From the NCBI GenBank assembly GCA_000092065.1, contig CP000582.1: 64,000 bases of DNA. The stretch is one strand, 5' to 3'. Each line of letters begins with the position of its first letter. The first letter of the stretch is position 1. This DNA comes from Ostreococcus lucimarinus. Taxonomy: Eukaryota. Made by a program: the position numbers and the translations under genes. The notes below the pieces were generated by a model. It saw nothing but the letters and a program-made list of their open reading frames with translations. It did no database searches and had not been told where the DNA came from. Positions 41,413 through 60,427 of the stretch are shown here, in pieces.

Positions 41413-41445
<33 letters not shown>

Positions 41446-42278: not shown

Positions 42279-44267
42279 TCAAATAGATTCCGCGAAGCGG
42301 ACGACGTCGCGAACCGCGCCGCCGCGACACTGACTTCCAGAGCCGTCTAGCCCGTCGAAAGTTCGGGACCAGACGTCGTGCACGAACGCGCGCTCGCGCT
42401 CGAGCGCGAAGCGCGGCTCGCCGTGGACGCCGATGAGCCAAGGAAGGGGCTTTTCTCCGTTTTCTATGACGAATTCGAGCTCGAAGAATACCGGAGCGCC
42501 GACGGCGGCGTATCCGGCGTAATGCGAGTCTTGTATGACGTTCCGTTCTTCCCTGACGCGCGCGCGGAAAGCGCGCACGACGGTTTGACACTGCGCGATC
42601 ATAGTCTTTGAAATGTCGTCCAATCCAAGCAAGCGCGCGCACAAGTCATCGATGTCGACTTCTCGCACCACGGCGGAGGCTTCGTCGCCGCTCAAGCCTC
42701 GATTTGTGAACTCGCGCAAGAACAGCTCGTCGTCGTATTCGTCACCCAAAATCACGCCATCGCCGTACTCGCGCACCGTGGAGTGCACTGACACGTATTG
42801 CGCGATGTACGCGACGTCGAAGCTCGGTTCGCGATCGGGAACGAACGCCGCGCGGACGCGTACCGAGCACTTTCGACCGAGCTCGTCCGTCACGCAGTCC
42901 TCGACGCGTCGCTGTGCGATGAGCCCACCTCGCGATCGTCGCGACGACGAGTCGATGATTTCCTCGCGAAAATACGCCAGCGTCCCGATGCGATTCTTGC
43001 GCTGTTTGAAAAGGCCTGGAAATTTCACGTGCTCGCCTTTGAGAACGTAGAGACGATTCGCGTCGCCAGAGCTCAAGTTTTCATCGATGTTCTCACTCGT
43101 GACCAACGTGGGCGATGAGACCGCGCCAGTGCCGTCGTACTGCGCGATAGCCTCGTGCGCTCGCGTTTTCGATGTCAGGAGTTCGTGCCAATGAGCGCCG
43201 TGGCTCACACTGTTGAACATGTCGAGCGAAGCGAAGAGGGAATCTTCGCCGCGCTCGGCTTCTGCGACCGACTCGCGCGCATTCCGCCACATTTCGCGGT
43301 ACGCCTCCACACTCTCATCGTCTCCACCATCGCACGCTAAGCGTGCGAGCGGATATACCGCCATGATTCCCGCGCCCGCGTGGAGCGCTTGCGTGTACAA
43401 ACTCGTCGGCTCGGCGGCGTAGCCGTTGAGATGCAGCGCGTGCGCGAGCGTGAACAACAACAGCGGATGCTTACCCGGTCTCACGAACTTACCCTCGGGA
43501 CCTCCTGATTTAGCCAACCGCATGAGTTTCACCGCACTCGCGATCGCGCCGAACTGCACGCACATCAGTCGCGCCAGCGCGATCCACGCGTCTGGATAGT
43601 CAAACGCGACGTTGACGCACTTGGCGTACTCCTCCTCGGCGTGATTGTACAACCCCAGATCTTCGCACATTCGTCCCGCGAATACGTACGCGGCGACGCA
43701 ACTGGGCGTGTGCTCGTACGTCGATCGCACGCATGAGAGACCGCGCGCGACGTACCCCTGCGCGCGATACACCGCGCCCAGCTGCAGCGACGCCTCGTAG
43801 TACTCTGGTTCAATCGCCAACGCGCGCTCCACCTTTTCCGCGAACGCGACCGCGGCCGCCCGCGCGCGCGGCGCGCCCTCGGGCGCCACCATCGCGTTCC
43901 TCGCGTCCTCCATCAGCTCCACGACCCTCGGATCGCGATCGCGCGCCTCGGCCGCCGCCGTCATCGCGCGCACCTCGGCGTCTCGCTTCGCCTCGTCCAG
44001 CCCCTCCCGCGCGCTCGCCTCGGCGTCCTCGCGAAGCGCCGCCTCCACGTCGTCCAGCGCGCGACGCGCGTCGTTCACGTCATCGTCGTCGCGCTCGTCC
44101 TCGTCGCCGTCGCGCGCGCGATCCATCGCGTCCGCGCGCGCGCCCTCGATCGCCGCTCGAATCTTTTTCGCATCCTCGAGCACGACCCTCGCGTCGCGTC
44201 TTCGCGCCGTCTCCGCCGCGCGCCGTCGCGCCGTCGCGTACGACGTCGCGCGCTCGAATCCATACAT
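42279..44267 (-). CDS. Tubulin-tyrosine-ligase-like (TTL/TTLL ATP-grasp) protein with an N-terminal TPR-like/acidic region
   Basis: ATG at 44267. The C-terminal half has the TTL pattern (LYVLKGEHVKFPGLFKQ..., VRVRAAFV..., FELEFVIENGEKPLPWLIGVHGEPRFALE, compare the TTLL FELxGxDxxxD..PWLLEVN.sP motif). The N-terminal half holds helical TPR-like repeats and an acidic coiled-coil. Confidence 0.6.
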   Translation of the reverse strand: MYGFERATSYATARRRAAETARRRDARVVLEDAKKIRAAIEGARADAMDRARDGDEDERDDDDVNDARRALDDVEAALREDAEASAREGLDEAKRDAEVRAMTAAAEARDRDPRVVELMEDARNAMVAPEGAPRARAAAVAFAEKVERALAIEPEYYEASLQLGAVYRAQGYVARGLSCVRSTYEHTPSCVAAYVFAGRMCEDLGLYNHAEEEYAKCVNVAFDYPDAWIALARLMCVQFGAIASAVKLMRLAKSGGPEGKFVRPGKHPLLLFTLAHALHLNGYAAEPTSLYTQALHAGAGIMAVYPLARLACDGGDDESVEAYREMWRNARESVAEAERGEDSLFASLDMFNSVSHGAHWHELLTSKTRAHEAIAQYDGTGAVSSPTLVTSENIDENLSSGDANRLYVLKGEHVKFPGLFKQRKNRIGTLAYFREEIIDSSSRRSRGGLIAQRRVEDCVTDELGRKCSVRVRAAFVPDREPSFDVAYIAQYVSVHSTVREYGDGVILGDEYDDELFLREFTNRGLSGDEASAVVREVDIDDLCARLLGLDDISKTMIAQCQTVVRAFRARVREERNVIQDSHYAGYAAVGAPVFFELEFVIENGEKPLPWLIGVHGEPRFALERERAFVHDVWSRTFDGLDGSGSQCRGGAVRDVVRFAESI

Positions 44268-44417
44268 GCGTTCGATCGCGCGCGCGCGCGACGCGTCGTC
44301 GTCTCGCGCGTCGGTCGCGCGGTTTCCGCGCGCCGCGTGCGTTTTCGAAAAAGCGTTTTTTCGACGATTCGACTCGGCGCGCGGTCAAACCGCGACGCCG
44401 CGTCGTTCGCGCGCTCG

Positions 44418-45164
44418 ATGCGCGCGCTCGTCGGCGGCGCGGACTGCGCGCGCGCGGGCGTCGCGATCGTCCTCGGCGGATTCGCGCGCGATCGCGCGTG
44501 GCGCGACGTCGCGCGCGACGACGACGGCGCGCGATCGTCGCGCGCCGTCGTCGACGATGATTTCGACGACGACGACGCGCGCGCGACGGCGACGGCGACG
44601 CCGACGCTCGGCGCGGCGCGCGACGGCGACGACGCCTTCGTCGCGCTGAACGCGCGCGTCGACCGCGCGGACGCGGCGCGCGTCGCGCTGGAGGCGATCG
44701 ACGCGCTGGACGCGCTCGCGGGCGACGACGCGCTGGACGAGGCGTGCTTCGTCGTGGCGGTGCGCGACGACGCGCTCGAGCGGGACGCGCGCGAGGTGGA
44801 CGACGCGGAGGCGTTTCTCGCGTTCGAAGACGCGCGAAACGGCGCGCGGGCGTCGCGAGCGGAGGGGATCGTGGCGAGGGCGCTCGGCGCGCGAGGGCTC
44901 GACGCGCGAGACGGCGGCGCGCTGGCGACGACGCTGCGGGCGTTGGAGGCGCGCGGGACGAAGACGAGGGTGCTGTACGCGCCGGCACACGAGGCGGGGA
45001 AGTTCGACGCGGACGGCGGGCGAGCGGCGATGGCGGTGAGGCATCGGTTGGGGCGGGCGGTGGAGGCGAGCGCGTTCGCGACGGCGCGCGCGTACGACGA
45101 GGACGCGGCGGCGAGATTGACGCCGGCAGCGGCGGCGAACGAGCGCGAGTCCCTGTACGTGTGA
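44418..45164 (+). CDS. Hypothetical Ala/Asp-rich protein
   Basis: The track ORF starts at a GTG (44337); the first ATG is 44418. Its composition (A/D/E/G-rich rather than R/S/P-rich) matches the coding-strand bias seen in verified genes here. I see no recognizable family. Confidence 0.3.
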   Translation: MRALVGGADCARAGVAIVLGGFARDRAWRDVARDDDGARSSRAVVDDDFDDDDARATATATPTLGAARDGDDAFVALNARVDRADAARVALEAIDALDALAGDDALDEACFVVAVRDDALERDAREVDDAEAFLAFEDARNGARASRAEGIVARALGARGLDARDGGALATTLRALEARGTKTRVLYAPAHEAGKFDADGGRAAMAVRHRLGRAVEASAFATARAYDEDAAARLTPAAAANERESLYV

Positions 45165-45216
45165 TGGCGCGCTAAACTGAACGGTATTGTAATATTAAAT
45201 CGACGAACGCGTTCGC

Positions 45217-46302
45217 TCACGCGGACGGTGGCGGCGGCGGCGGCGGCGGCGGTCCGCGCGCCGGCGGCATCACGATGGTCGGTCGCCCTCGCGCGTCGTA
45301 TCGCACCGGCACGTACATCATCGGCTGCCCAGCGGCGGACGGTGGCGGCGGCGCGCCGCCGACGCCCATCTGTCCCATTGCCGCGCTCGGCGGCGGCGGT
45401 GGCGGTCGCGGAAGCCCGCGCATGCCGAACATACCGCCGCCGCCCATCGGCGACGGCTTGGCGCCGCCGCCGCGCGCGCCGGACGATCGCTTCTTTCCGT
45501 TCGCCTTTTTCCGCGCCGCTTTCGCCGCGGCTTCCTCTTCGTCGTCGCTGAACTCTTCCTCCTCGACCACTTCCTCGTCATCCTTACCGCTCGCGTCGTA
45601 CCCCTTCTTATACAACCTCGCGACGTTCGGAATCCTCCTCGACCGCCCGACGACGACGAACACCTCGTCCCCCGTCTCCGCCGTCACCTCCTCCGGCAAC
45701 CGCAGCGCGTACAGCGGCGCGCTCACCGGTCCAAACACCTCCTCGATCGCTCCCAACCCTCGCCGATCGCGCGTGCACAGCACGCTCTCCTCGTCCAGCG
45801 TCTCGTCGACGCCGTCCAGATCCGTCTCTCGCTCGCGCGTCGCGTCGCCCCTCCCGCTCTGCACCACCATCGTCCGTCCCACCACCGACACCACCCGTCC
45901 CACCGCCTCGATCGTCTCGTCGCTCCCGATCGCCGCCACCGGCGTCACCGCCCCGTCGTCGTTCGCGATCTCGTTCCGCGTCCTCGGCGGCGCGTCGCCG
46001 TCTTCGCCGTCCTCGTCGTCGTCGTCGTCGTCCCCCCCGTCGCGCGCGCGCGCCAACCACTTCGGCACGTCCCTCGCGCTCACGCTCTCGCACGACGTCG
46101 ACCCATCGTCTTCGTCGCTCTCGCTCGTCGTCCACGCGCTCGACGAGCTCGCGTCGTCGCGCCGTCGCGCCTCGTCGAACGCGAATTCCGGCACGCGCGC
46201 CTCGTCGCTCGCGTCGTCGCGTCGCGCGTCGCCCGTCGCGCGGGCCGCCGCCGCGGCGACGCGCACGTCGAGCGGCGCGCGTTCGAGCGCGCGCTCGAGC
46301 AT
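45217..46302 (-). CDS. NAF1: H/ACA snoRNP assembly factor NAF1-like (Gar1-homology domain, Pro-rich C-terminus)
   Basis: A Gar1/Naf1 beta-barrel region is present (VGRVVSVVGRTMVVQSGRG...VLCTRDRRGLGAIEEVFGPVSAPLYALRL). A poly-Pro/Gly tail follows. The track ORF runs to 47346 but that part is antisense to exportin; ATG 46302 (MLERALERAPL) is chosen. Confidence 0.7.
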   Translation of the reverse strand: MLERALERAPLDVRVAAAAARATGDARRDDASDEARVPEFAFDEARRRDDASSSSAWTTSESDEDDGSTSCESVSARDVPKWLARARDGGDDDDDDEDGEDGDAPPRTRNEIANDDGAVTPVAAIGSDETIEAVGRVVSVVGRTMVVQSGRGDATRERETDLDGVDETLDEESVLCTRDRRGLGAIEEVFGPVSAPLYALRLPEEVTAETGDEVFVVVGRSRRIPNVARLYKKGYDASGKDDEEVVEEEEFSDDEEEAAAKAARKKANGKKRSSGARGGGAKPSPMGGGGMFGMRGLPRPPPPPPSAAMGQMGVGGAPPPPSAAGQPMMYVPVRYDARGRPTIVMPPARGPPPPPPPPPSA

Positions 46303-46430: not shown

Positions 46431-49400
46431 ATGGACGTCGCGCGCGCGGTGCTCGACGGCGACGTCGCGGCGCTGGACGAGGTGGTGGAGCAATTCTACG
46501 GCGGTGACTCTGGCAAGGTGCGACGAATCGAACGCGCGAACGAACGAATCGGGACGGAAAGGGCGCGGAAGCGGGCGCGGGACGCGCCGAGACGGGATCG
46601 AAGGCGAGGACGAACGATGGGACGTCGATGGACGGGGCGCGAACGCGCGAGGGCGCGCGGAGGGACGAAAGGGGGGGGGGGGGATCGATGAGATGATCGA
46701 CGCGCGAGCGAAGGCGCGGAGCGAAGGCGCGGAGCGAAGGCGTGGACGGCGCGACGCGCGACGCGCGACGCGAGGGGAGGACGCGCGGACGCGAAAACGC
46801 GCGGATCGGGACGGGCGACGAGAATTTGAGGACTGACGAAGACGGTTCGACTCGACGGCGACAGCGCGCGGAGGCGGAGAAGATTTTGCAGAGTTTGCAA
46901 GAGCACGAACAGACGTGGACGCGCGTGGATGGGATCTTGGAGACGTCTAAGAATGCGAATACGAAGTTTTTCGCGCTGCAAGTGCTGGATGGGGTGATCA
47001 AGTACCGATGGGGGTTGTTGCCGAACGACCAACGCGAGGGGATCAAAAATTTCGTGAGCAATTTGATCATCAAGTTGAGCGCCGATGAGACGACGTTTAG
47101 GCGGGATCGGGCGTACATCAACAAGATCAATAACGTGCTGGTGCAGATTTTGAAACACGATTGGCCGCATCGCTGGCAGAGTTTCATTCCGGATTTGGTG
47201 GGCGCGGCGAGGACGAGCGAGTCGCTGTGCGAAAACTGCATGAGCATCTTGAAATTGCTGTCGGAGGAAGTTTTCGATTTCAGTCGAGGGGAGATGACGC
47301 AAGACAAAATTAGAGCGCTGAAGACTTCTTTGAACAGCGAGTTCAAGATGATTCACGAGCTGTGCGAGTTTGTCCTGACGCATTCGCAAAAACCAGAGTT
47401 GATAAAGACGACGCTCACGACGCTCAACGCGTTCTTGTCGTGGATACCTCTCGGTTACATCTTCGAGTCGTCGTTGTTGGACACCTTGCTCGCGCTCGCG
47501 CCCAATCCGGCGTATCGCAACATCGCATTCCTCTGTCTGTCGGAGATTGGTGGTTTGAACGTCGAGGCGAAATACGACGCGCACTTCATCAAGCTCTACA
47601 CCGTCGCCGTGGAACACCTGCTGGGCATCTTGCCTCGCGGCGTGAACATCGCCCAGGCGTACGCCAACGGTACGGATGACGAGCAGGCGTTTGTGCAAAA
47701 CTTGGGCATCTTCCTCACTCAATTTTTCAAAGCTCACATCGTGCTCTTGGAATCGACCGCCGAGTTGCAGCAATCGATGCTCATCGGCATCGAGTATCTT
47801 TTGAACATTTCCTACGTGGAAGAACCTGAAGTTTTCAAGGTTTGCCTCGATTACTGGCACTTCATGGTGTGTGATGTGTTCCAATCCGAAGGCGGTGATG
47901 CCGGGGACTTCCGATTCGGCGGAGATGTCGTCGCTCAAAACGAGCGAGGCGTAAACCGTCGAGTGCTGTACGCCGCGCCGTTTAGCAAACTGCGCTTGCT
48001 GATGATTTCGCGCATGGCCAAACCGGAGGAGGTTTTGATCGTAGAGGATGAAAATGGGAACATCGTGCGAGAAACTTTGAAGGATAACGACGTCTTGGTG
48101 CAGTACAAGATTATGCGCGAGACTCTGATTTACCTTGCGCATCTCGACCACAAGGATACCGAAACGCAAATGCTCGAAAAACTGCACGCGCAGCTCAACG
48201 GTCGTGAGTACACGTGGCATACGTTGAACACGCTCTGTTGGGCCATCGGTTCGATCAGTGGATCCATGCAAGAGGATCAAGAGAACCGATTTCTGGTGAC
48301 CGCCATTCGAGACTTGCTCAACCTGTGCGAAATCATGCGCATGAAGGACCACAAAGCCGTCATCGCGTCAAACATCATGTACGTTGTCGGACAGTACCCG
48401 CGCTTCTTACGTCTACATTGGAAGTTCTTGAAGACCGTGGTGAACAAGCTGTTCGAGTTCATGCACGAGACGCATCCGGGTGTGCAGGATATGGCGTGCG
48501 ATACGTTTCTGAAGATCTCCATGAAATGCAAGCGCAAATTTGTCATTTTACAAGTTGGCGAGACGGAGCCGTTCGTCGACGAACTTTTGCGAGGACTGTC
48601 TGACACTATTCGCGACTTAGAGCCGCATCAAGTGCACACGTTCTACGAATCTGTCGGTCACATGATCGGCAGCGAGTTGAACCCGGCGAAGAGAGAAGAG
48701 TACGTGCAGCGATTGATGGCGCCTCCCAATGAGCAGTGGCAACAAATCATGACTCAGGCGCGCCAGAATAGTGAGTGCTTGAAGAATCAAGACGTCATCA
48801 AAAACATCTTGAACATTCTCAAGTCGAACACGCACTTTTGCATGTCTCTTGGCCAACCGTTCCAAAACCAAATGTCAGCCATTTACGCGGATGTTTTGAA
48901 CGTTTACAAGCTTTACAGCGAATTGGTCAGTCAAAGCATCGCGGAAGGCGGGCCGTACGCAAGTAAGTCGTCCTTTGTCAAGTTGTTGCGCTCCGTCAAA
49001 CGAGAAGTTCTTCGACTCATCGAAACATTTGTCGAACGCTGCGACGACCCGCATCTCGTCGCGCAGCAGCTCGTGCCGCAGATGTACGATCCCATCTTGG
49101 GTGACTATGCGCGGAACATTCCGGACGCGCGCGACGCCGAGGTGTTGTCGCTCTTCGCGGCAATCATCAATAAGGTGGAGACTGCGATGACCGATGAAAT
49201 TCCGAAGATCTTCGACGCCGTGTTTGAGTGCACGTTGTCGATGATTACGAAGAACTTTGAGGACTTCCCCGATCATCGACTAAAGTTCTTCCTGCTTCTT
49301 CGTTCGGTAACGAATCACTGCTTCCGAGCTCTCGTTGCGTTGAGCCCGGCGCATTTGAAACTCATCATTGATTCCATTGTCTGGGCATTCCGTCACACCG

Positions 49401-49957
49401 AGCGCAACGTCGCGGATGAAGGTTTGAACTTACTTTTGGAGATGATGAAGTACTTTCAACTCTCCGAATACTGCAATCAATTCCACCAAAGCTTCTACTT
49501 GATGACGATGAGCGAGGTCTTCGCCGTCATGACGGATGGTTTTCACAAGCCAGGTTTCAAATTGCACGCTCTCATTCTGCAAAATCTCTTCACTATTAGC
49601 GAAAGTGATCAATTGAGTGCGCCTCTTTGGGACGTTGCGGCGAAGGGGGCGGGCGCTTATCCGTCCAACGCGGCTTTCGTTCAAGAGCACTGCGCGCAGT
49701 TGTTGTGCACCTCGTTCCCGAACATGCCACCAGCTGAAGTTCAAACGTTAGTTCTCGCGATGTTCCAATGCAAGAATGACCTCGCGGCGTTCAAGTCAAC
49801 GTTGAGGGACTTCTTAGTGCAGACGAAACAATTTAGCAGCGTGGATTTTGCAGAGGAAGAGCAAAGCCGGTTAGCGGCTCAGCGACAAGCGCGGCTTTCA
49901 GCTATTCCGGGGATGGTCAGCGGCGCGAACGTCGGTGACATGGATGACGACGAGTAG
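46431..49957 (+). CDS. XPO1: Exportin-1 (CRM1); two exons (exon 1 46431..46517; intron 46518..46864; exon 2 46865..49957)
   Basis: Exon 2 is colinear with CRM1 along its whole length (WTRVDGILETSKNANTKFFALQVLDGVIKYRWGLLP...). The track start at 46742 is a GTG with no ATG. Upstream ORF 46431 (ATG) encodes MDVARAVLDGDVAALDEVVEQFYGGDSGK, matching the CRM1 N-terminus (…LLDNVVNCLYHGEG). Splicing AAG|GTGCGA ... GACTGAC ... CAG|CGC gives a junction with exactly the CRM1 spacing. Confidence 0.9.
46671..46683. repeat. G13 homopolymer inside exportin-1 intron 1
   Basis: A run of 13 consecutive G at 46671..46683. Confidence 0.9.
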
Positions 49958-50010
49958 ATCGACGGCTCTTTAAATACTACGAAATCTAACAATAGCTAAA
50001 TATATATAGT

Positions 50011-51276
50011 TCACACGCCGCTCTTGGGATCGTACACGCGCATCAGCTCCTTCGCCGCTCGCTCGTACGTCTCATCGCTCGTATTCTCGAGGAACAGTGG
50101 TTTTGCGTTTTCGACTTCCTGCGGGCGCGATCGAGCCGCGGCTGCGGCGTACGCCGAGTCGTAGTGTTCTTCTAGTATATCTTGCACGAAAGCATCCCAG
50201 TCTCCACCGGCGATGAGCGCCTTCCACGCATTCACCCTCTCGTGTCCGACGCGCTTCACGAGAACATCTATACACTCCAACAAGCGATCCGTCTCCGTCG
50301 TCTCAAAGTGCTGGTACCCCGCTCGAATCCACTTCACGCGCTCCGACATGGGTATCTCCAGCTGTGTCACCGCTCCTTTGCGCATGCCTGACCACATCGT
50401 GCTGGGCACTTGGACTTTTCCAATCATTGAGCTCTCGCCCTCGACGAACACGGGCCTTGTGGGATCGAACCGGCGCGCCTTGCACGCGATGCGAGAGTCA
50501 AAAAGTTTTTGACTTGGCTGCTCGCGTGCGCCGGGTTCTTCCCCTAGAATCGAGCCACGATGATTTGCCATCACTTCTAAATCGATCACCTGCGCACCCG
50601 CGGCTTCGAGAGCGTCCAATAACTTACCCTTTGCACAACCGGTTTTTCCCGCGACGACGTGATAGGAAAATTGATCCATCCCTCGCAACCATTCGAGCAC
50701 GCCAGCTCGGTAACGTTTATACCCGCCGGGGGCAAAGTGAACATCAAAACCAATTCTGCTGAGCACGTGCGCCAGACTGAGCGACCGCTCACCGCCGCGC
50801 CAACAATAAACTAAAATCTTCGTCGACTTTTCGCAAGCCATGAAATTTTCATCAATTATCTTACTCAAGTTTTGTGCCACGAGCGCTGCCCCGAGTTTCT
50901 TCGCCTCAAACGGGTCGACTTGCTTATATATAGTTCCCACACGTTTCCTCTCTTCGTCATCAAGCACTGGGGTGCTTATCGCTCCCGGGACGTGGTCGTC
51001 CTCGTACTCGCTCGGCGCGCGCGCGTCGCACACGTAGTCGAACGCTCCCGCGTCGAATCCATCGTCGTCGAGCGTCACCGTTCGAATGCGTGGGCCGAGG
51101 TCCAAGAAGTCCTCGGGATAGGTGTGTTTAGCCTGCGCGCGCGCGGGCGCAGGTCCAGCGCGATGTCCCCAGTGCCTAACGACCGCTTCAGGTTTTCGCG
51201 CGAAATGCGCGACAAGCGACGTCGCACGACCGCGCGTCGAGCTCGCGCGAAGTGCGTGCGAGCACATGTGACGCAT
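50011..51276 (-). CDS. selU: tRNA 2-selenouridine synthase (SelU/MnmH family: rhodanese domain + P-loop domain) with an N-terminal organellar-type presequence
   Basis: A rhodanese domain is present (YVCDARAPSEYEDDHVPGAISTPVL..., active-site LVYCWRGGERSL), followed by a P-loop region (VVAGKTGCAKGKLL). The track start at 51342 is a TTG; the first ATG is 51276 (MRHMCSHALRASSTRGRATSLVAHFARK..., a basic/hydroxylated presequence). Confidence 0.75.
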   Translation of the reverse strand: MRHMCSHALRASSTRGRATSLVAHFARKPEAVVRHWGHRAGPAPARAQAKHTYPEDFLDLGPRIRTVTLDDDGFDAGAFDYVCDARAPSEYEDDHVPGAISTPVLDDEERKRVGTIYKQVDPFEAKKLGAALVAQNLSKIIDENFMACEKSTKILVYCWRGGERSLSLAHVLSRIGFDVHFAPGGYKRYRAGVLEWLRGMDQFSYHVVAGKTGCAKGKLLDALEAAGAQVIDLEVMANHRGSILGEEPGAREQPSQKLFDSRIACKARRFDPTRPVFVEGESSMIGKVQVPSTMWSGMRKGAVTQLEIPMSERVKWIRAGYQHFETTETDRLLECIDVLVKRVGHERVNAWKALIAGGDWDAFVQDILEEHYDSAYAAAAARSRPQEVENAKPLFLENTSDETYERAAKELMRVYDPKSGV

Positions 51277-51447
51277 TGAACTCGCGAGCGAATTTGCGAC
51301 ACGCGTCGCGTCACGGTCGACGCGCTGGCGTGTGCTGCACAAGCAGGCGGCGGGACAACGCCGTATTCGGCGAGAAGACGCATTTGAACATTCGTCGGCG
51401 TGTCCGTCACAATGGGCTAGTCTATATCAGCTAATTATCGTGTATTT

Positions 51448-53646
51448 TCATTCGTCGTCGTCGTCTGAATCGCTCTCGTCGTCGTCCTCGAGATCGTAAA
51501 CTTGAACGCGCGTAGCGCCGACGAGAACGCTCGCCAGGCCGCGGTTCGCGCTGACGGCTAAAGGCGCGAGCGGCTCGACGCAGGGTAAAACGCGCTCGCG
51601 AATTTGTATGGAGTTCAAATCCACCAGCGCACCATCGCGCGGCAGCGCTTGAAACGCGCCATCATCCAGGAGCACGAGTCGCGCCTTGGCGCCTCCCATC
51701 ACGTCCTTGGGCTTGAGGAGGAGCGCGATGGAATCGCCCTTGTAAGCGCACGCGTCGACGATGAGCTCGTTCGGCGTTGTCACTGTTGCGGTTCTAAGGC
51801 ACTTATCGTCAAACGCGCGATACATGTGCACGCGATCTCGCAAAGTGTCGACGTGGAAACTTTCTCTGTGCGCTTCGACGGCTTCGGCGTTGGAAAACAC
51901 TGATTGCTCGGTGTTGTCCTGCACCTCATCCGCGTACGTCCACGCACATTTTGCGCTCAACACATCACATGACGATTCTAAAACACCGTTTACTTCACGT
52001 GTGATGCGCGTGAGCGTTTCACACAACGAAAGCGGCTCGCCATCCGAAAGGGCATCGTTGAGTCGTAGCATGGATTCGAGAGGAGGCTGCGCGCCGCGCA
52101 AGAATACTCCGTCGCCGGTGTGCACACGGTCATGACGCACTGAAAGTGCGTAGTCAAGACAATCTTGAGAAACGCCGTTTTTGCTGAACGCCAAATCCAA
52201 GTACTCTTTTACTAAATCCAAACGTGGCGACGGAAGCTGAGCGCCGTGCGCGTCGCCGTCTTCGGCGACGATTTGCGCTCTAATGATGTACACGAAAAAT
52301 GCACGCAGTTGCATCGTTCGTTTTGTCACCACGCGCCCGGCGTCGATAATGGCAAATGTGAACTGCTCACACATCTTTATGACTTCTTCCACGCGCGATT
52401 CATCGATGCCCACGCCATCTGATCCGTAACCGAGTCGCGCCAACCCGAGCAGGGCGTTCAGCCGAAGCATGATGTCATCCATCAAAGGAGCGACCACGCT
52501 CACGAGATGCTCGTGCACGATCGTTAACGCAACGTCTACATCTTTCGCCATTCGCTTGACGTGCGCCATTTTGAATGTGGTCATAAAGAAATGCTCCAAC
52601 GCTTCGTCAAACGTTCCCGTCGTCAAAAGCATCAACAGTCGCTCGCGAAGTTCATAGTACAGGTCCATTTCTTCGCCGTACATCTCTGTCATGAGTAACG
52701 TGTCCGTAAACTGCTTAAATTGATCATCGAGACGACGTTTGTACCCTTGCTCGTACTTCGCGCTAGCTTCCCGCACGACGATAATCGCGCGCTCCAGTGA
52801 CGTCTTCAAGTGCGCAGCGTGCGTGGACACCAAATACACCTCTCTTACGTGCACCGCCATGTACGCCGCGTCCAATCGCGCGAAAGAAGCCTTTCTTCGC
52901 GATGCGTCGCGAACTATCGCATCAACGCTCGTAAAATCATCTCTCGACGCCAACGCCTCGACGCTGCCTGTCTTCGCGAACGCGTCTCGCCATAAGCCCA
53001 CGCGAAACATCCCGAACGCGTGCATCGCGACCACCCCGTTCGCGTTCGCCGCGACGAGGGCGCTAAACTTGCCCGTACTTTCAAAATGATCCACCAACCC
53101 GGCGGCGTTCCACGACTCGCGCTTGCCCGTGAATCTCGCGCTCGCGCCGCCTTCTCTCTCCCGCGCGCCGTCGCGCGTGCCGTTCCATCCGTGCCTCGCC
53201 GCTCGACTCTCGTCGCGCACCACCGCTCCCTCGCGCGCGTCGATCCATCGTAAGCACGTGATTCCACACCCATCGCTTCCGCCTTCTCCGCCTTTATCCC
53301 GTTCCGCCGCTGTCCCGCTCGCGCCGTCGCGCGCGTCCCGCTCGAAGCCTTCCAGCCCCGTAATCACCCTCAAACACTCCCCGTCCTCCGTCGCGTGCGC
53401 CGTGATCGCTCCCGAGGCGTAGCCGACGACGAGAACCTTGCCGTCCGGGCGAAACGTCGCGCGCGTGGGCGTTTCGAGCTCGGGCGCTAAGGTTTTCGTC
53501 CAGAGTTTGTTCCAGTTCAACCGAAACGCGGTTAAAGTGCCGCCGTTCGCGCACGCGACGACGACGAGATCCATCGTCGGACACAGCGCGATCGTCGTCG
53601 CGGGTGCGCCGAGCTTTGCGTCTCGCGCGAGGACGAAGGACGTCAT
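51448..53646 (-). CDS. ANAPC4: Anaphase-promoting complex subunit 4 (APC4)-like
   Basis: The N-terminal WD40-like region CPTMDLVVVACANGGTLTAFRLNWNKLWTK...FRPDGKVLVVGYASGAI matches the APC4 N-terminal pattern. A long APC4-like helical domain follows and the protein ends with an acidic tail. The track start at 53790 is a TTG; the first ATG is 53646. Confidence 0.65.
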   Translation of the reverse strand: MTSFVLARDAKLGAPATTIALCPTMDLVVVACANGGTLTAFRLNWNKLWTKTLAPELETPTRATFRPDGKVLVVGYASGAITAHATEDGECLRVITGLEGFERDARDGASGTAAERDKGGEGGSDGCGITCLRWIDAREGAVVRDESRAARHGWNGTRDGAREREGGASARFTGKRESWNAAGLVDHFESTGKFSALVAANANGVVAMHAFGMFRVGLWRDAFAKTGSVEALASRDDFTSVDAIVRDASRRKASFARLDAAYMAVHVREVYLVSTHAAHLKTSLERAIIVVREASAKYEQGYKRRLDDQFKQFTDTLLMTEMYGEEMDLYYELRERLLMLLTTGTFDEALEHFFMTTFKMAHVKRMAKDVDVALTIVHEHLVSVVAPLMDDIMLRLNALLGLARLGYGSDGVGIDESRVEEVIKMCEQFTFAIIDAGRVVTKRTMQLRAFFVYIIRAQIVAEDGDAHGAQLPSPRLDLVKEYLDLAFSKNGVSQDCLDYALSVRHDRVHTGDGVFLRGAQPPLESMLRLNDALSDGEPLSLCETLTRITREVNGVLESSCDVLSAKCAWTYADEVQDNTEQSVFSNAEAVEAHRESFHVDTLRDRVHMYRAFDDKCLRTATVTTPNELIVDACAYKGDSIALLLKPKDVMGGAKARLVLLDDGAFQALPRDGALVDLNSIQIRERVLPCVEPLAPLAVSANRGLASVLVGATRVQVYDLEDDDESDSDDDDE

Positions 53647-53833
53647 CGCGGCGCGGTGTGCGGTTGATTCTTCAGTGGATGCGCGCGGCGCGACAGCCAG
53701 AGCGACAGACGCGGCGAATTTCAAACTCGGGGGGCGACAAACAGCGGCGAATCGAGCGGGCGGTGTGGCTAAGACTGTCTTATGATACAAGAGGCTAGTT
53801 ATTACGGTTCGCGGTTGACGATGACGAAGTCCA

Positions 53834-55144
53834 TCACGCGACGTTGGCGACGCTTTCGGCGCCGCGCGGCCGCGATAAAAAGGAGAAATCGGGCTCGACG
53901 ACGGGCTTTAAAAACAGCACTGGTTGCGCCATCAACGCGTTGCCGACGATCAAAGGGAGCCAGAGCGCGCCCGCGGAGAGGCGGAACGACAGTGGGGCGG
54001 CGGGCCACACTCGATCGATGAGCATGCTGAACCCGCGAACGAGCAAGATGTGCGTGAGATAGCAGTAGAGCGTTCGCGAACCCATGGCGGTGATGAAGGA
54101 CTTCTTACTCGGCACGAGCGCCAAGACGCCCAAGCCGGCGAATGCGGTGAAGACGTAAAGCGCGATGCGTTTGAGCATGTCGATGAACTGCGCGGCCACG
54201 GAGGACGACTTGTACGGCGCGATGGACCAGATGAACCACTGCACGTCGTCGAAGCACTCTTCGAAGACGTTGAGCACGACGTAGAGAAGCGCGTACGCCA
54301 CCGCGAGAACAATCGCCCCGAACGTCGCGCGACGACCGTAATCGATACTCTGCAAGCGCTGCAAGTGCTCCGGCTTCAACGCGACGCAGCCGAGGAAAAA
54401 ATACACGGAATACACGAAGACGCGCTGCCAATCGAAAGCCGCGTTTCCATTCTTCGTCGTCGCCGTCTCCGTGAACCCCACGAACAGCCCCATGAACACA
54501 CTCAGCGCCACGATGACCCCATTTCGTAACCCCCCCACCACGAGCACGCTCATGCGCCAAAAGAACAGCGCGAGCAAGTACCACATCACCCCCACCGGCG
54601 CCCACCACTGCAGCGGCGCGACGTCGTAATAATTAATCGCCACGTAAAACGCCTGCCACACCGCGTACGTCCCCAACAGCGTCCCGAACGCCCCTCGCAC
54701 GCGCACCAACAAATTCACCGCGCTCGCCTCGTCCTCCCTCGCCGCGCGGAGCCAACTCTTCGACAGGTATCCGCTCGCGCCCGCGAACAACGGCATCCCC
54801 GTCGCGCACAACACCAAATATAACGTTCGCACGTGTCCGTGCGTCGTCGCGTTCACCGCGTCCCTCTCGCACCACCCTCGCCGCTCGTGCGCGTCCAGCG
54901 CTCTCAGGAACTCCTGCAGCGCGTGATTCCACACGACGATCAGCATGAGCGCGTACTTCAGGTTGTCCAGGTACGCGTCCCGTCGGTCGCTCGCGCGTTC
55001 GTCGAACGCGCGCGGCGTCGCCGCGTCCGCGTCCAGGCTCGCGTCGAGGTTTCTCGCCCGTCGCGTCGCGCGCGCGTCGCGCGACATCGCGTATCCGGTC
55101 GCGTCGCCGTCTCGCGCCGTCGCGTAACACCATCCAGTTTTCAT
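53834..55144 (-). CDS. Acyltransferase-3 (OafA-like) family multi-pass membrane protein
   Basis: ATG at 55144. The start of the domain RRDAYLDNLKYALMLIVVWNHA fits the acyltransferase-3 N-terminal motif (R..LD.lR..a...V...H). It has about 10 predicted TM helices. Confidence 0.55.
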   Translation of the reverse strand: MKTGWCYATARDGDATGYAMSRDARATRRARNLDASLDADAATPRAFDERASDRRDAYLDNLKYALMLIVVWNHALQEFLRALDAHERRGWCERDAVNATTHGHVRTLYLVLCATGMPLFAGASGYLSKSWLRAAREDEASAVNLLVRVRGAFGTLLGTYAVWQAFYVAINYYDVAPLQWWAPVGVMWYLLALFFWRMSVLVVGGLRNGVIVALSVFMGLFVGFTETATTKNGNAAFDWQRVFVYSVYFFLGCVALKPEHLQRLQSIDYGRRATFGAIVLAVAYALLYVVLNVFEECFDDVQWFIWSIAPYKSSSVAAQFIDMLKRIALYVFTAFAGLGVLALVPSKKSFITAMGSRTLYCYLTHILLVRGFSMLIDRVWPAAPLSFRLSAGALWLPLIVGNALMAQPVLFLKPVVEPDFSFLSRPRGAESVANVA

Positions 55145-55308
55145 CAGTCAGAAGCGTCTTAACACACGGATCATCGGTCGGACGCGCTTGAACACACGGA
55201 CCATCAGCGCCGCCGACGACGATCGACGCGCGCGCGCGACGTCGGACATCGCGCGACGCCGCGCGCGCTCGGACGCCGCGACGACGCCGCGGTCGACGCC
55301 GGTCCGCG

Positions 55309-57399
55309 ATGTCCGACACGGCTCGCGCGACGCGGGTGAAGAATAAAGCGCCCGCGCCGGTGCAAATCACCGCGGAACAAATCGTGCGCGAATCCGCGGA
55401 GCGCGCGGAGGACGTGTACGGGGCGCCGAAGCGGAAGATCGCGGACCAGGAGGAGCTGAAGGAGTACAGATACGAACAGCGGAAGCAGTTCGAGGATCGA
55501 GTGCGGTCGTCGTACTGGGAACCGCGGGCGTGGATACGGTACGCGAAGTGGGAGGAGGGACAGGGGGATTTGCCGAGGGCGCGAAGCGTGTGGGAGCGAG
55601 CGCTGGAACATCACGGACGGGACGTGCCGATATGGTTGCAGTACGCGGAGATGGAGATGAAGAACAAAGCGATCAATCACGCGAGGAACGTGTGGGAGCG
55701 GGCGTGCTCGACGCTGCCGAGGATTGATGTGTTTTGGTACAAGTACGTGAACATGGAGGAGACGCTCGGGCAGGTTGCGGCGGCGAGACAGGTTTTCGAG
55801 AAATGGATGAAGTGGGAACCCGAACACACGGCGTGGAACGCGTATGTGAAGATGGAGCAGAGGTACGGGGAGAAAGAGCGGGCGAGGGATATCTTTCAGC
55901 GGTATGTGCAGGTGCACCCGGACGTGAAGGCGTGGACGCGCTGGGCAAAGTTTGAGTTTTCGTCGGGCGAACGCGACAAGGCGCGCGAGGTGTACGAAGC
56001 CGCGGTGGAGTTTCTGCGGAACGAACCAGAGGTTGGGAACTTATACGCCAACTTTGCCAAGTTTGAGGAGATGTGTCACGAAGTTGAGCGCGCTCGGGCG
56101 ATTTATAAATTCGCTCTCGATCGTTTGCCCAAGGAGCAAGCCGAGTCTGTGTACAAGGAGTTTATGAAGTTTGAAAAGATGCACGGAAATCGAGAAGGGA
56201 TCGAGGACGTCGTTGTGGGGCAACGACGGTTCAAGTACGAGGAAGAAGTGTCCAAGAATCCGCTGAACTACGACACTTGGTTCGATTACATTAGACTAGA
56301 AGAAAACGCCGGCGACATGGCGAAGACGCGCGAGGTGTACGAACGCGCCATCGCCAACGTGCCGCCAGCGAACGAAAAACGCTTTTGGCAGCGATACATT
56401 TATATTTGGATCAACTACGCGCTTTACGAAGAGCTCGAGGCGCGAGACGTGGAACGCACGCGAGAGGTGTACCGAGCGTGCCTCAAGGTGATTCCACACG
56501 CCGAGTTTTCGTTTTCAAAGATTTGGATCATGGCGGCAAAGTTCGAGCTTCGTCAGCGACGACTCGATGCGTGCCGTAAGATTTTTGGATTGGCCATTGG
56601 ATTAGCACCGAAGGCAAAGATATTCGCGACTTACATTGAGATCGAGTTCCAGCTCGGGAACGTCGACAGGTGTCGCACCCTGTACGAAAAGTACTTGGAA
56701 ATTGAGCCGCAAAATTGCTCGACGTGGATCAAGTACGCCGAACTCGAGCGATCGCTCGGAGAAATCGAACGTGGGCGCTCGATTTTCGAACTCGCGGTTG
56801 ATCAGGCCATGCTAGACATGCCGGAGGTACTTTGGAAGGCGTACATCGATTTCGAGACGTCCGAGGGAGAGCGCGAGCGTACGCGCGCGCTTTACGAGCG
56901 TCTTCTCGAGCGTACGAAGCACGTCAAGGTATGGATGTCTTACGCGCGCTTCGAAGCAACACCGATTGTTGTTGTGGATGACGACGCCGACGACGCTGCG
57001 ATAGCCGCCGCCACCGCCGCGGCGGAGAACGACGAGCACGAACGCCTCGAGACGCGCCAAGCGAAAAGCCGCGCCGTGTACGAGCGAGCGCTCGCTGAAC
57101 TCAAAGAAATCGATCCAGACGCCAAAGAAGAGCGTGTCATGCTTCTCGAGGCGTGGAAGTCATTCGAAGACACCTTACCGAGCGAATTCTCGAAATCCGC
57201 CGACGTCAAGGCGCGTCTTCCCAAGCGCGTTAAGCGCAAGCGCGCCGTCGAGGACGACGACGGTCGCGAAATCGCACAGGAAGAGTACTACGATTACGTC
57301 TTCCCCGACGACGCCGGCGCCGCGCAACCGTCGCTCAAGCTTCTCGAAGCCGCGTACGCGTGGAAGAAGGCCAAAGCCGCGGCTGAGGCGACGGATTAA
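55309..57399 (+). CDS. CRNKL1: Crooked-neck-like pre-mRNA splicing factor (CRNKL1/Clf1/Syf3), HAT repeats
   Basis: ATG at 55309. Tandem HAT repeats run throughout (…WIRYAKWEE..., IWLQYAEMEMK..., FWYKYVNMEE..., AWNAYVKMEQRYG..., AWTRWAKFEF...). An acidic C-terminus follows. This is the typical Clf1 layout. Confidence 0.9.
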   Translation: MSDTARATRVKNKAPAPVQITAEQIVRESAERAEDVYGAPKRKIADQEELKEYRYEQRKQFEDRVRSSYWEPRAWIRYAKWEEGQGDLPRARSVWERALEHHGRDVPIWLQYAEMEMKNKAINHARNVWERACSTLPRIDVFWYKYVNMEETLGQVAAARQVFEKWMKWEPEHTAWNAYVKMEQRYGEKERARDIFQRYVQVHPDVKAWTRWAKFEFSSGERDKAREVYEAAVEFLRNEPEVGNLYANFAKFEEMCHEVERARAIYKFALDRLPKEQAESVYKEFMKFEKMHGNREGIEDVVVGQRRFKYEEEVSKNPLNYDTWFDYIRLEENAGDMAKTREVYERAIANVPPANEKRFWQRYIYIWINYALYEELEARDVERTREVYRACLKVIPHAEFSFSKIWIMAAKFELRQRRLDACRKIFGLAIGLAPKAKIFATYIEIEFQLGNVDRCRTLYEKYLEIEPQNCSTWIKYAELERSLGEIERGRSIFELAVDQAMLDMPEVLWKAYIDFETSEGERERTRALYERLLERTKHVKVWMSYARFEATPIVVVDDDADDAAIAAATAAAENDEHERLETRQAKSRAVYERALAELKEIDPDAKEERVMLLEAWKSFEDTLPSEFSKSADVKARLPKRVKRKRAVEDDDGREIAQEEYYDYVFPDDAGAAQPSLKLLEAAYAWKKAKAAAEATD

Positions 57400-57760
57400 A
57401 CGGATAAACACACCATATCCATCTATGATAGCACTCCAGACCCTTCGAATACGACAAAACCAAAACCTACGCCATCCGTACCTCAACGCCGCGCGCGCTC
57501 GAACGTCACACGCGCTCGCCCGACGCGTACGGCGGACTCGCGCCGGGCCGACACGACGGATCACTGAGGTGACTCCGCGCACACGCACGATTCAGCGCGC
57601 GCACGCGGCGCCCGCGCGCGCCGCGCACGGGCCGCGCGCGAACGCGAATTCCAGGCGGCGACCGACGCGGCGACGCGACCGACGCGCGACGACCAAACGC
57701 GCGTCCATCGGCTACCCGAGCGGTGAAGACGTCGACGTCAGCATCGACATCGACGCCGAA

Positions 57761-60427
57761 ATGTCGAAGATCGCGGTCGAGCGCGCGCTGCCGACGATGT
57801 TCAGCGACCTGACGATGACGGACCCCAAGCACTGGCGGTCGACGCACGCGAGAATCGCGAACGGACCGGTGGTGCCGCAACAACTCATCGGTGGGACGCC
57901 GATGATCGATTTGAGTGAATTCAGTGCGAATCCAAAGGTGAAGATTTATGGCAAGTGCGAGTACTTGAATCCGAGCGGGAGTATTAAGGATCGAATCGCG
58001 CAGGAAATTTTGGCGAGAGCGCTGGAAACGGGAGAGCTGAAGGCGGGGATGACGGTCGTCGCGGCGACGAGTGGGAACACGGGTGCGGCGATTGCGATGG
58101 CGTGTGCGATTCGCGGGTTTCCATACATCGTGATTACGAATCAGAAGACGAGCAAGGAGAAGATTGACGCCATGCGGGCGTATGGGGGGGAGGTCATCGT
58201 CGCACCGAGCGGGGTGCCGGCGGATCACCCGGATCATTATCAAAACATCGAAGCGACGATGTGCGCAAAAAATCCGAAATTTTATGGTGTGAATCAATAC
58301 GACAATCCGTACAACGCGGATGCGTACGAAAAGACACTTGGTCCTGAGATTTGGTCGCAAACCGAAGGGGCGGTGACGCACTTCGTCGCCGGTGGCTCGA
58401 CTGGCGGTACGATCACAGGCACGGGTCGTTATCTTAAGAGTGTCGACCCGACGATTAAAATCGTCTTGGCCGATCCCAAGGGAAGCGTTCTGTGGGATTA
58501 TTTTGTGAACGACATTCCTGAAGAAGAACTCGTGGCGAAGAGTTGGGAAGTCGAGGGTGTGGGTAAAGATTCCATTCCGGGTGTACTCGACACCGAATAC
58601 ATTGACGGCGCCGTCATGGGTGACGACAGTAGTTCCTTCCGCATGGTTCGCACGGTTGCTGAATCTTCTGGTGTCTTGCTCGGTGGTAGCTCCGGTCTAA
58701 ACCTGCACGCTGCTCGCGTGCTCTCGAGTCACATCAAGGAGGGGACCATCGTCACGGTACTGTGCGACAGCGGTGTCAAGTACTTGTCCAAGATCTATAA
58801 CGATGAGTGGCTTCAAGCGAAGAATCTTGACAAACCGTTAGCCGACGTTTCGAAGTACGAAGTCCACTGGAAGAACGGCTCGCATGAAGTAACGGAGGAT
58901 GAAGAAAACGACAGCTTGTGGGGCCGTGAACAGGAAGAGAAAGAACTTCGTTTCCTCGATGAAGTGGCGACGCACATGGTTGAATACCACCGTAACTCGA
59001 TTCGAGCGACGGAACCGGTGAGTGTGTACAACTCTCCCGCCGATCTCCACGCCAGCTTCGAAGAGATGGGCGTTCCACTGAATTTTCGCTCCGGCGAATC
59101 GCCAATTTCCATCAACAATCTTACAACCGCTATGAATGCTGTTTTGGACAACAGTGTGCGAAGCTCGCACCCGATGTTCATGAATCAGCTCTACGCAGGC
59201 GTTGACCCCATCGCGCTCGCGGGCGAATGGGCATCAAGCGCGCTGAACTCAAACGTGCACACCTTTGAAGTAGCACCGATTCTCACCGAAATTGAGCGTT
59301 CAATGCTCGCAAAGATTGCGTCACTCTGGCTTGGAGAGAATGCAGATGGCTCGGCGCCTGATCACGACGGCTTATTTGTACCGGGAGGTTCCATCGCTAA
59401 TCTGTACTCTATGATCTTGGCGCGCGAGCGCGCATGCCCAGAAGCGAAGAAAACCGGAATGCCGCAAGGCTACGTTGCCTTCTGCTCTGAACAATCGCAC
59501 TACTCCTACAAGAAGTGCGCCCACATGATAGGTTTAGGTATGGATAACATGATCAAGGTCGATTGTGGCAAGAATGGTGCCATGCTTCCTGAAGCACTCG
59601 AAGCCGCGATAGCGGCCGCGAAGGCTGCGGGCAAGACACCGTTTTACTGCGGCGCCACGGCGGGGAGCACTGTTTTGGGCGCGTATGACCCGTTTGCTGC
59701 GTTGGCCGACGTGTGTGCCAAAGATAACGTTTGGTTGCACGTCGATGGGGCGTGGGGTGGCGCTGCGCTCGTCTCCAAGCAGCACAAACACTTGATGAAC
59801 GGCGTCGAGCGAGCAGACAGCTTTTGCTGGAACCCGCACAAGCTGTTGGGCATTCCTCTCCAGTGCTCCATCGTTCTGAGTAGACACGCTGGAGAATTCA
59901 TGGCGGCCAATTCTTACAAGGCGGACTACTTGTTCCAGCCCGACAAGAATAACACCGAAGCTGATTTGGGCGATCGCACTATCCAATGCGGCCGCAAGTC
60001 TGACGCGCTCAAATTGTGGCTCGCGTGGAAGTACCGCGGCGACGAAGGTTGGGAAAAACTCGTTGACCACGCCTTCTCTTTGGCCAAGTTCGTCGAAGCA
60101 GAAGTCGTGCAGGACACCACGGGTGCTTGGGCGCTGGCCACACCCGCGCAGTGCGCCAATGTCGGATTCTGGTACGTGCCGCCGCGCCTACGTCCGTTCA
60201 ACAAGGACACCGCGACGCCCGAACAATTCGCGGAAATTGCCAAGGTTGCCCCGAAGCTCAAGGATCGGATGCAACGCGCCGGTGACGCTATGATCGGTTT
60301 CCAACCCGTTCCGGCGCTCAACCTGCCCAACTTTTTCCGTCTCGTATTGCCGAATCCTCGTCACAACAGCGAGACCAAGCTTCGCGAGCTCATGAAGCGC
60401 ATGGACGCGATGGGCGCCGACCTCTGA
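57761..60427 (+). CDS. Bifunctional PLP protein: N-terminal cysteine-synthase/CBS-fold (fold-type II) domain fused to a C-terminal group-II decarboxylase (CSAD/GAD-like) domain
   Basis: N-domain motifs: IGGTPMIDL, KCEYLNPSGSIKDRIA, TSGNTGAAIA, GGSTGGTITG. C-domain: the NPHKLLGIPLQCS PLP-lysine motif, SIANLYSMILARE, and overall CSAD/GADL1/GAD similarity. The track ORF starts at 57134 in Arg-rich sequence overlapping the 3' end of the upstream gene; ATG 57761 (MSKIAVERAL) is chosen. No stop lies between the two domains. Confidence 0.85.
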   Translation: MSKIAVERALPTMFSDLTMTDPKHWRSTHARIANGPVVPQQLIGGTPMIDLSEFSANPKVKIYGKCEYLNPSGSIKDRIAQEILARALETGELKAGMTVVAATSGNTGAAIAMACAIRGFPYIVITNQKTSKEKIDAMRAYGGEVIVAPSGVPADHPDHYQNIEATMCAKNPKFYGVNQYDNPYNADAYEKTLGPEIWSQTEGAVTHFVAGGSTGGTITGTGRYLKSVDPTIKIVLADPKGSVLWDYFVNDIPEEELVAKSWEVEGVGKDSIPGVLDTEYIDGAVMGDDSSSFRMVRTVAESSGVLLGGSSGLNLHAARVLSSHIKEGTIVTVLCDSGVKYLSKIYNDEWLQAKNLDKPLADVSKYEVHWKNGSHEVTEDEENDSLWGREQEEKELRFLDEVATHMVEYHRNSIRATEPVSVYNSPADLHASFEEMGVPLNFRSGESPISINNLTTAMNAVLDNSVRSSHPMFMNQLYAGVDPIALAGEWASSALNSNVHTFEVAPILTEIERSMLAKIASLWLGENADGSAPDHDGLFVPGGSIANLYSMILARERACPEAKKTGMPQGYVAFCSEQSHYSYKKCAHMIGLGMDNMIKVDCGKNGAMLPEALEAAIAAAKAAGKTPFYCGATAGSTVLGAYDPFAALADVCAKDNVWLHVDGAWGGAALVSKQHKHLMNGVERADSFCWNPHKLLGIPLQCSIVLSRHAGEFMAANSYKADYLFQPDKNNTEADLGDRTIQCGRKSDALKLWLAWKYRGDEGWEKLVDHAFSLAKFVEAEVVQDTTGAWALATPAQCANVGFWYVPPRLRPFNKDTATPEQFAEIAKVAPKLKDRMQRAGDAMIGFQPVPALNLPNFFRLVLPNPRHNSETKLRELMKRMDAMGADL

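Follow-up and report, generated by a model that had tools for sequence, protein, structure and literature searches.

The stretch of DNA analysed here (the window) comprises 64,000 nucleotides of contig CP000582.1 of Ostreococcus lucimarinus (assembly GCA_000092065.1). On its reverse strand, at 50011..51276, it carries a complete single-exon coding sequence of 421 amino acids (aa; stop codon 50011-50013) whose product is, judged by family models and alignment, an orthologue of bacterial SelU (also called MnmH or YbbB), the synthase of 2-selenouridine in tRNA, with the two-domain layout of that family. Selenouridine in tRNA is regarded as a prokaryotic trait in the selenium literature. The ybbB marker was surveyed in prokaryotes only in the tables of Mariotti et al. 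2015 (PMC4561486), and a 2020 review lists 5-methylaminomethyl-2-selenouridine (mnm5se2U) for Eukarya and calls the eukaryotic existence of the bacterial selenation process unknown (PMC7694415). No paper describing or discussing a eukaryotic SelU turned up in the literature searched, in which subscription journals are poorly covered. New here are a eukaryotic SelU clade, a Lys-Gly (K-G) signature in its Walker A motif and a dual-start structure of the fused selenophosphate synthetase Ndh-SelD; already known were the SelU family and a machine annotation of this gene by the Joint Genome Institute (JGI), with the GenBank entry partial and unnamed. We lean, with modest confidence, towards an enzyme that would act on organellar tRNAs, the plastid being the likelier compartment.

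Gene and protein

The open reading frame (ORF) is uninterrupted; its first in-frame ATG lies at 51276, and the mechanical ORF extends to a TTG at 51342. A public 421-aa protein (P0121), named ‘tRNA 2-selenouridine synthase’ by JGI, is identical to it, and the 295-aa GenBank entry XP_001416347.1 (Ostreococcus lucimarinus CCE9901, ‘predicted protein, partial’) matches aa 82-376 exactly, so that the leader, the first part of the rhodanese domain and the last 45 aa are missing from it. Because of these two matches the window can be taken as nuclear DNA of O. lucimarinus. Identical copies of the ORF occur on 34 contigs.

Family membership was assessed with NCBIfam equivalog models for tRNA 2-selenouridine(34) synthase MnmH, which have curated cut-offs. 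The protein exceeds these in NF008752 (398.8 bits versus 266, alignment spanning aa 76-413), TIGR03167 (321.8 versus 219.75) and NF008750 (307.6 versus 241), scores far above chance level. The rhodanese domain (Pfam PF00581, E 1.2e-09) occupies aa 76-190 (50707..51051, reverse strand, as for all SelU features below) and contains the SelU-specific insertion of ~36 aa (aa ~105-140), which aligns to E. coli residues 44-79 and to PDB 3g5j. The P-loop domain (AAA_SelU, PF26341) with its helical tail follows at aa 200-421 (50014..50679), as precomputed by Pfam for identical or near-identical proteins. Bacterial SelU (E. coli b0503; PF00581 + PF26341) has the same rhodanese domain with insertion, then the P-loop, and the E. 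coli protein is 29% identical to the algal one. The initial annotation, made from the letters of the sequence, had proposed a two-domain SelU/MnmH, and the three model scores together with the catalytic Cys described below bear this out.

An AlphaFold model from a 24-sequence alignment is confident over aa 60-421 (predicted local distance difference test (pLDDT) ~95), and its C-terminal domain has a fold like that of dephospho-CoA and adenylate kinases (Foldseek against PDB). Sequence search of PDB and Foldseek returned no full-length SelU structure; in fold, the matches were to the rhodanese domain 3g5j and otherwise to P-loop kinases of a general kind. The sole related solved structure, 3g5j, comes from a SelU-type protein of Clostridioides difficile labelled ‘ATP/GTP binding protein’ and represents its N-terminal rhodanese domain (phmmer E 3e-18; Foldseek template modelling (TM) score 0.78 over 114 residues). 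It shares the SelU-type insertion but covers the rhodanese domain only, which leaves the P-loop site geometry without an experimental comparison model. The split SelU of Methanococcales (TIGR04568 and TIGR04569) has the same rhodanese and P-loop modules, and its models match the algal protein weakly (68.6 and 33.3 bits versus cut-offs of 200 and 180). In archaeal SelU the two modules are separate chains, and the gene for the P-loop part lies upstream (PMC4830565), whereas the algal protein is one chain in the bacterial order.

A eukaryotic clade and a conserved nuclear locus

Identity to the O. lucimarinus protein is 77-87% in Ostreococcus species, ~56-65% in Micromonas-like algae and Bathycoccus, 51% in Cymbomonas and 49% in the haptophyte Diacronema, with a Trebouxia cluster ranking between the last two; bacteria come after, at 44-50%. 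In a search of one genome each for 185,579 prokaryotic species, the best identity among the 80 best loci is ~51%, and the top matches belong to beta-/gammaproteobacteria, SAR116, cyanobacteria, one planctomycete and one actinobacterium. Over the nearest bacterial SelU proteins compared (beta-/gammaproteobacterial, SAR116, cyanobacterial and planctomycete), identity ranges from 39 to 51%.

The named eukaryotic homologues (Mamiellophyceae, Cymbomonas, Trebouxia and Diacronema) form one clade in 190 of 200 bootstraps of a neighbour-joining tree of 100 sequences, and in a second neighbour-joining tree with more representatives 31 of 32 K-G sequences fall in one clade. At 50% identity the eukaryotic clade holds at least ~20 clusters. 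A cyanobacterial origin, by way of the plastid endosymbiont, is unsupported: the clade and five cyanobacterial sequences group together in 0 of 200 bootstraps. Phylogeny, which the initial annotation had proposed as the means to decide between vertical and horizontal origin, has given a single eukaryotic clade with no cyanobacterial grouping, while the deep nodes of the neighbour-joining trees do not place the donor lineage.

The SelU gene stands between two eukaryotic genes. Upstream on the same strand is APC4 (anaphase-promoting complex subunit 4; 51448..53790, reverse strand; Pfam ANAPC4 and ANAPC4_WD40), whose stop codon is separated from the SelU ATG by 171 base pairs, and convergent with SelU is exportin-1/CRM1 (46742..49957, forward strand; Pfam CRM1_C, Xpo1 and IBN_N). 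Further neighbours identified by Pfam are an acyltransferase, a Syf1/crooked-neck splicing factor, CAF1B/HIR1 and an NAD kinase. The order Syf1/crooked-neck, acyltransferase or hydrolase, APC4, SelU, CRM1 (46742-57399 in the window) is shared with Bathycoccus prasinos and a further Ostreococcus species (loci L085, L086 and L087). In the APC4-SelU spacer, two out-of-frame ATGs (51391 and 51383, within 51381-51391, reverse strand) lie 5' of the SelU start, and the one at 51383 opens a frame that runs beyond the SelU ATG to 51075. Scanned over its full length for Rfam families and tRNAs, the window gave no selenocysteine insertion sequence (SECIS) element, tRNA or other RNA to tie to the SelU gene.

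Compared with an Ostreococcus orthologue, the mature region has a nonsynonymous rate (dN) of 0.103 and a synonymous rate (dS) of ~2.1, giving a dN/dS of ~0.05; mature SelU is under strong purifying selection. These data bear on whether the gene might be a bacterial contaminant, a functionless recent transfer or a decaying pseudogene, a suspicion that could be raised from an overwhelmingly bacterial family, an intronless gene and a public model labelled ‘predicted protein, partial’. The position between APC4 and CRM1, the synteny to Bathycoccus, bacterial identity of no more than ~51%, clade monophyly, the dN/dS and an intact ORF repeated identically across contigs rule out contamination, recent horizontal transfer and pseudogene status, and we consider the probability of this whole group of explanations practically negligible. 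The initial annotation had named the gene as nuclear and had listed a contaminating contig as a danger; the first statement is upheld by the neighbours and their conserved order, and the danger is excluded by the same evidence together with the low bacterial identity. A functional, vertically inherited nuclear gene is the best explanation of the sequence data.

Active site and a deviant Walker A motif

The residues known to matter in enterobacterial SelU are, in our alignments, all kept with the exception of the Walker A Ser/Thr. The active-site loop LVYCWRGGERSL (aa 155-166, 50779..50814) contains CWRGGERS, a loop of C-x-x-G-x-R type, and its Cys158 (codon 50803-50805) aligns to the catalytic Cys97 of E. 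coli SelU (reference sequence from NC_000913), which is essential for selenation (PMC4830565). The Cys loop in the rhodanese domain had been pointed out in the initial annotation, with loss of the Cys on alignment as a possible objection; both the loop and the Cys are present. The insertion keeps A125, L128 and G129, the counterparts of E. coli A63, L66 and G67, whose roles in the enterobacterial enzyme have been described (PMC4830565). Bacterial and algal systems also have in common that SelU co-occurs with SelD.

The P-loop motif VVAGKTGCAKGKLL (aa 207-220, 50617..50658), found by direct reading and alignment, departs from the canonical Walker A G-x(4)-G-K-[ST] in reading G210-K-T-G-C-A215-K216-G217. 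E. coli Lys155 has its counterpart in Lys216, which is invariant in both alignments examined. Ala215 replaces E. coli Gly154, and Gly217 (codon 50626-50628) replaces the Ser/Thr at the position of E. coli Thr156. E. coli and Salmonella SelU have GCTGSGKT, and the nearest bacteria GxTGSGK[ST], with K-[ST] in 78 of 78; in the eukaryotic clade, almost all listed members show GxTG[CS][AG]K-G-[KR]. The Gly-to-Ala change is also seen in some bacteria, whereas only the clade has Ser/Thr changed to Gly. Of all positions G217 marks off the clade most sharply (it is invariant in the 21 aligned clade sequences), followed by I140, E325, K218 and the acidic residue of the Cys loop, which is Glu or Asp in the eukaryotic clade (Glu in the algal CWRGGERS) and mostly Gln or Lys in the nearest bacteria. 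The K-G motif occurs in 20 of the top 150 representatives at 50% identity. The initial annotation had recognized a ‘Walker-A-like’ region here; a P-loop region is indeed present, but the Ser/Thr-to-Gly departure and its occurrence throughout the eukaryotic clade had been missed. By every sequence criterion other than this Ser/Thr, the protein is within the known family.

The departure matters for mechanism. In Salmonella SelU, K155A abolishes geranylation and an intact Walker A is needed (PMC4830565), and E. coli SelU requires Mg2+, does not selenate 2-thiouridine (s2U) directly and passes through S-geranyl-s2U as an obligatory intermediate (PMC9105526). Our main caution on mechanism follows from this, because the hydroxyl that usually coordinates Mg is lost. 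Hence the clade could have acquired a new function in which Mg-geranyl diphosphate is unused and SelU would carry out direct selenation, end at a different intermediate (lipid or thio), or have a substrate of another kind. Such a change would suit a Walker A implicated in geranyl diphosphate binding that has lost its Ser/Thr in a single clade, with G217 absent from all 78 nearest bacteria and with further changes at I140, E325 and the Glu/Asp Cys loop. On the other hand, Lys216, Cys158 and the entire SelU-specific insertion are kept, the equivalog scores lie above cut-off and SelD co-occurs, and the loss of the hydroxyl need not end the binding of a phosphate ligand that is not hydrolysed. We regard a new function as quite unlikely.

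An N-terminal leader and its probable destination

The first 50 aa, MRHMCSHALRASSTRGRATSLVAHFARKPEAVVRHWGHRAGPAPARAQAK (51127..51276), form a putative organelle transit peptide on the grounds of composition, disorder and dN/dS. This N-terminal region of ~50 aa holds 10 R+K against 1 D+E (net +9), 6 S+T and 11 A, and is rich in R/S/T/A/H. It has no counterpart in bacterial homologues, which begin ~95 residues ahead of the Cys, and AlphaFold gives aa 1-59 a pLDDT below 50, that is, predicts them as disordered. Its first 51 codons evolve fast relative to the Ostreococcus orthologue (dN 0.57, dS 0.88, dN/dS ~0.65). As no Met occurs between M4 and the conserved domain, the leader belongs to the protein, barring an unrecognized intron. 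Immediately upstream of the rhodanese domain lies YPEDFLDLGPRIR (aa 53-65, 51082..51120), conserved in the green-algal members and absent in bacteria, which is probably the start of the mature protein. Measured from the anchor GPR[IL][RK], nearly all full-length clade members have extensions, of ~29-209 aa, which are net positive, S/T/A/R-rich and unconserved in sequence. A basic R/S/T/A/H leader had been described in the initial annotation, and it has proved to be fast-evolving, disordered, hydroxyl-rich and widespread in the clade. A nuclear gene, this leader, the YPEDFLDLGPRIR segment and GKTGCAKG in place of GxTGSGK[ST] together set the algal SelU apart from the bacterial one.

The predicted disorder and near-neutral evolution of the leader, together with the green-algal YPEDFLDLGPRIR segment that comes directly after it, fit a cleavable organelle-import peptide. 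Basic disordered tails can also bind RNA, so that the extension might instead be an RNA-binding or other non-targeting appendage of a cytosolic SelU acting on 5-methoxycarbonylmethyl-2-thiouridine (mcm5s2U) tRNAs. The annotated short form of SelD is cytosolic, and mnm5se2U is listed for Eukarya without a known enzyme (PMC7694415), both of which would suit such an enzyme. However, an extension that is unconserved in sequence and length and evolves almost neutrally is typical of transit peptides and unlike functional RNA-binding appendages, some clade members have signal-peptide-like segments, and the distribution is restricted to algae; we consider a cytosolic SelU highly improbable.

We infer instead that the leader imports SelU into an organelle, the plastid being likelier than the mitochondrion. 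The O. lucimarinus leader by itself does not separate the two, and the hints are comparative. The named clade members are, without exception, photosynthetic eukaryotes. Some deep members (P0212, P0116, P0040 and P0267) have a signal-peptide-like hydrophobic segment (judged by a Kyte-Doolittle hydrophobicity heuristic) followed by a transit-peptide-like stretch, and such bipartite-like N-termini favour the plastid because complex plastids require a signal peptide plus a transit peptide. P0116, encoded on a marine protist contig (L082:455-2317; also L083 and L084), is SelU fused at its C terminus to DUF1823 (PF08853). The DUF1823 part, in which an NCBIfam scan found no family, is closest to the pelagophyte Aureoumbra (76% identity), and the named stand-alone DUF1823 homologues found are all from complex-plastid algae (Aureoumbra, Guillardia, Diacronema, Emiliania, Amphora and Fibrocapsa). 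An ORF adjoining P0116 on its contig resembles a dynein heavy chain on visual inspection. Plant chloroplast tRNAs carry 5-methylaminomethyl-2-thiouridine (mnm5s2U) (PMC9976899).

The same enzyme and chemistry could also reside in the mitochondrion and act on the wobble base of 5-carboxymethylaminomethyl-2-thiouridine (cmnm5s2U) type in mitochondrial tRNA-Lys/Glu/Gln. Mitochondria employ a bacterial-type MnmE/MnmG/MnmA pathway. Arg is abundant in the O. lucimarinus leader (MRHMCSHALRASSTRGR...) as well as in the Pavlovales-like ones (MRVLARAQRGQLQLLRVL...), all of which could fold into amphipathic helices, and the latter have no clear signal peptide despite coming from a complex-plastid lineage. 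Against a mitochondrial location, clade members are known from photosynthetic lineages only, the signal-peptide-like N-termini of several deep members are ill-suited to mitochondrial import, and the plastid-lineage DUF1823 forms part of one fused member. Moreover, chlorophytes produce geranyl diphosphate in the plastid via the methylerythritol phosphate (MEP) pathway, so that the geranyl diphosphate pool is plastidial. Taken together, a mitochondrial SelU appears unlikely to us.

Selenophosphate supply

Selenation also needs a selenophosphate donor, and the absence of SelD from the genome had been named in the initial annotation as a finding that would speak against SelU. The sole selenophosphate synthetase (SPS) of O. 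lucimarinus is a fusion of an NADH-dehydrogenase-like domain to SelD (Cys form) at chr17:69968-72220 (Mariotti et al. 2015 supplement, PMC4561486), which disposes of this objection. Among eukaryotes, Ndh-SelD fusions are mainly an algal feature, and most of their sequences group with one another (PMC4561486). Like SelU, Ndh-SPS is a bacterial-type selenium-use gene found mainly in algae (green algae, a haptophyte and stramenopiles); it belongs to a different protein family and was reported as an SPS for selenocysteine synthesis (PMC4561486). In the literature searched, Ndh-SPS is not linked to SelU and its two-start structure is not reported.

The Ndh-SelD of Mamiellophyceae has two conserved in-frame starts (orthologues P0354, P0475, P0391, P0424, P0433, P0435, P0438, P0431, P0447 and P0453). 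In Mamiellophyceae, short and long calls are 796 versus 834/836, 799 versus 845, 803 versus 856, 814-816 versus 881-885 and 820 versus 896 aa, the long forms having an extra 37-76 aa before a conserved internal Met that lies 10-15 residues ahead of the Rossmann GGGH motif. The best-matching cluster is represented by a protein 96% identical to the O. lucimarinus model, and in this cluster the long-form P0475 includes the N-terminal residues of the model itself. When eight lineages are pooled (430 aa), the Ndh-SelD leaders contain 82 R+K against 14 D+E (binomial p = 7e-13), 25% S+T and 12% Ala. By a rough estimate, an open frame of ~50 codons in 60% GC DNA has a chance of ~0.2 per lineage; because the frame persists in at least six diverged lineages, the leader is probably coding. 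The two starts suggest dual localization by alternative initiation, for which this is a classic arrangement, with a short cytosolic form for selenocysteine synthesis and a long organellar one. With such a SelD, the chief logistic difficulty for SelU in an organelle would fall away.

Proposed function

On balance we consider it somewhat probable that SelU is targeted to an organelle, more likely the plastid than the mitochondrion, where it would turn 5-(carboxy)methylaminomethyl-2-thiouridine at position 34 ((c)mnm5s2U34) of tRNA-Lys/Glu/Gln into its 2-seleno counterpart, probably by way of an S-geranyl stage and with the long Ndh-SelD as its feed. The ~50-aa leader would carry the protein in. 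The rhodanese Cys and the P-loop domain would then put selenium in place of the 2-thio group of the wobble base in tRNAs encoded by the organelle, namely tRNA-Lys(UUU), -Glu(UUC) and -Gln(UUG). As in E. coli, the reaction may pass through an S-geranyl intermediate, here one formed from plastid geranyl diphosphate. Selenophosphate would come from the single Ndh-SelD, its long form serving the organelle and its short form the cytosolic selenocysteine pathway.

Several points weigh against this proposal. Geranylation by Salmonella SelU needs an intact Walker A, whereas its Ser/Thr is Gly across the eukaryotic clade; given that geranylation is obligatory in E. coli, SelU chemistry in the clade may differ. 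The Pavlovales-like leaders (P0042 and P0044) look more mitochondrial than bipartite. The published Ndh-SelD model starts at the internal Met, without the leader, and the dual start is deduced purely from how the ORF is built and composed. All trees are neighbour-joining and have no resolution at deep nodes, and the literature searched holds no measurement of 2-selenouridine or S-geranyl-2-thiouridine (se2U or ges2U) in algal organellar tRNA.

A bolder idea would turn the Walker A change to account: photosynthetic eukaryotes may have their own altered selenouridine system, in which the K-G SelU clade and an alternatively initiated Ndh-SelD act in the plastid with a chemistry unlike the Mg-geranyl-diphosphate route of E. 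coli. Such a system, which we think doubtful, might involve direct selenation, a different donor (prenyl or phosphate), or a wobble base left stably lipidated in plastid tRNAs. Whatever its chemistry, the clade-wide change makes these proteins a natural mutant for learning what the SelU P-loop binds.

If the organellar SelU proposed above is real, the algal need for selenium extends to organellar translation besides selenoproteins, and the supply of selenium could limit marine phytoplankton in a second way. A conserved, selected and leader-bearing SelU in a genetically tractable picoalga is, in addition, a candidate for explaining the so far unexplained reports of selenium-modified eukaryotic tRNA.

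Other features of the window

Outside the SelU locus, 44001-46000 is a local G+C maximum (0.73 versus ~0.50-0.69 elsewhere in the window), and mechanical ORF calls there are unreliable because several long ORFs overlap on both strands. Three long ORFs have no Pfam match at E <= 0.001: 62258-63937, 42279-44267 and 41050-42642 (559, 662 and 530 aa, all on the reverse strand). At 57134-60427 on the forward strand, an ORF of 1,097 aa fuses PF00291 PALP (aa 250-545, 253 bits) to PF00282 Pyridoxal_deC (aa 656-1014, 303 bits), an unusual fusion of a beta-family pyridoxal phosphate (PLP) enzyme with a group II decarboxylase.

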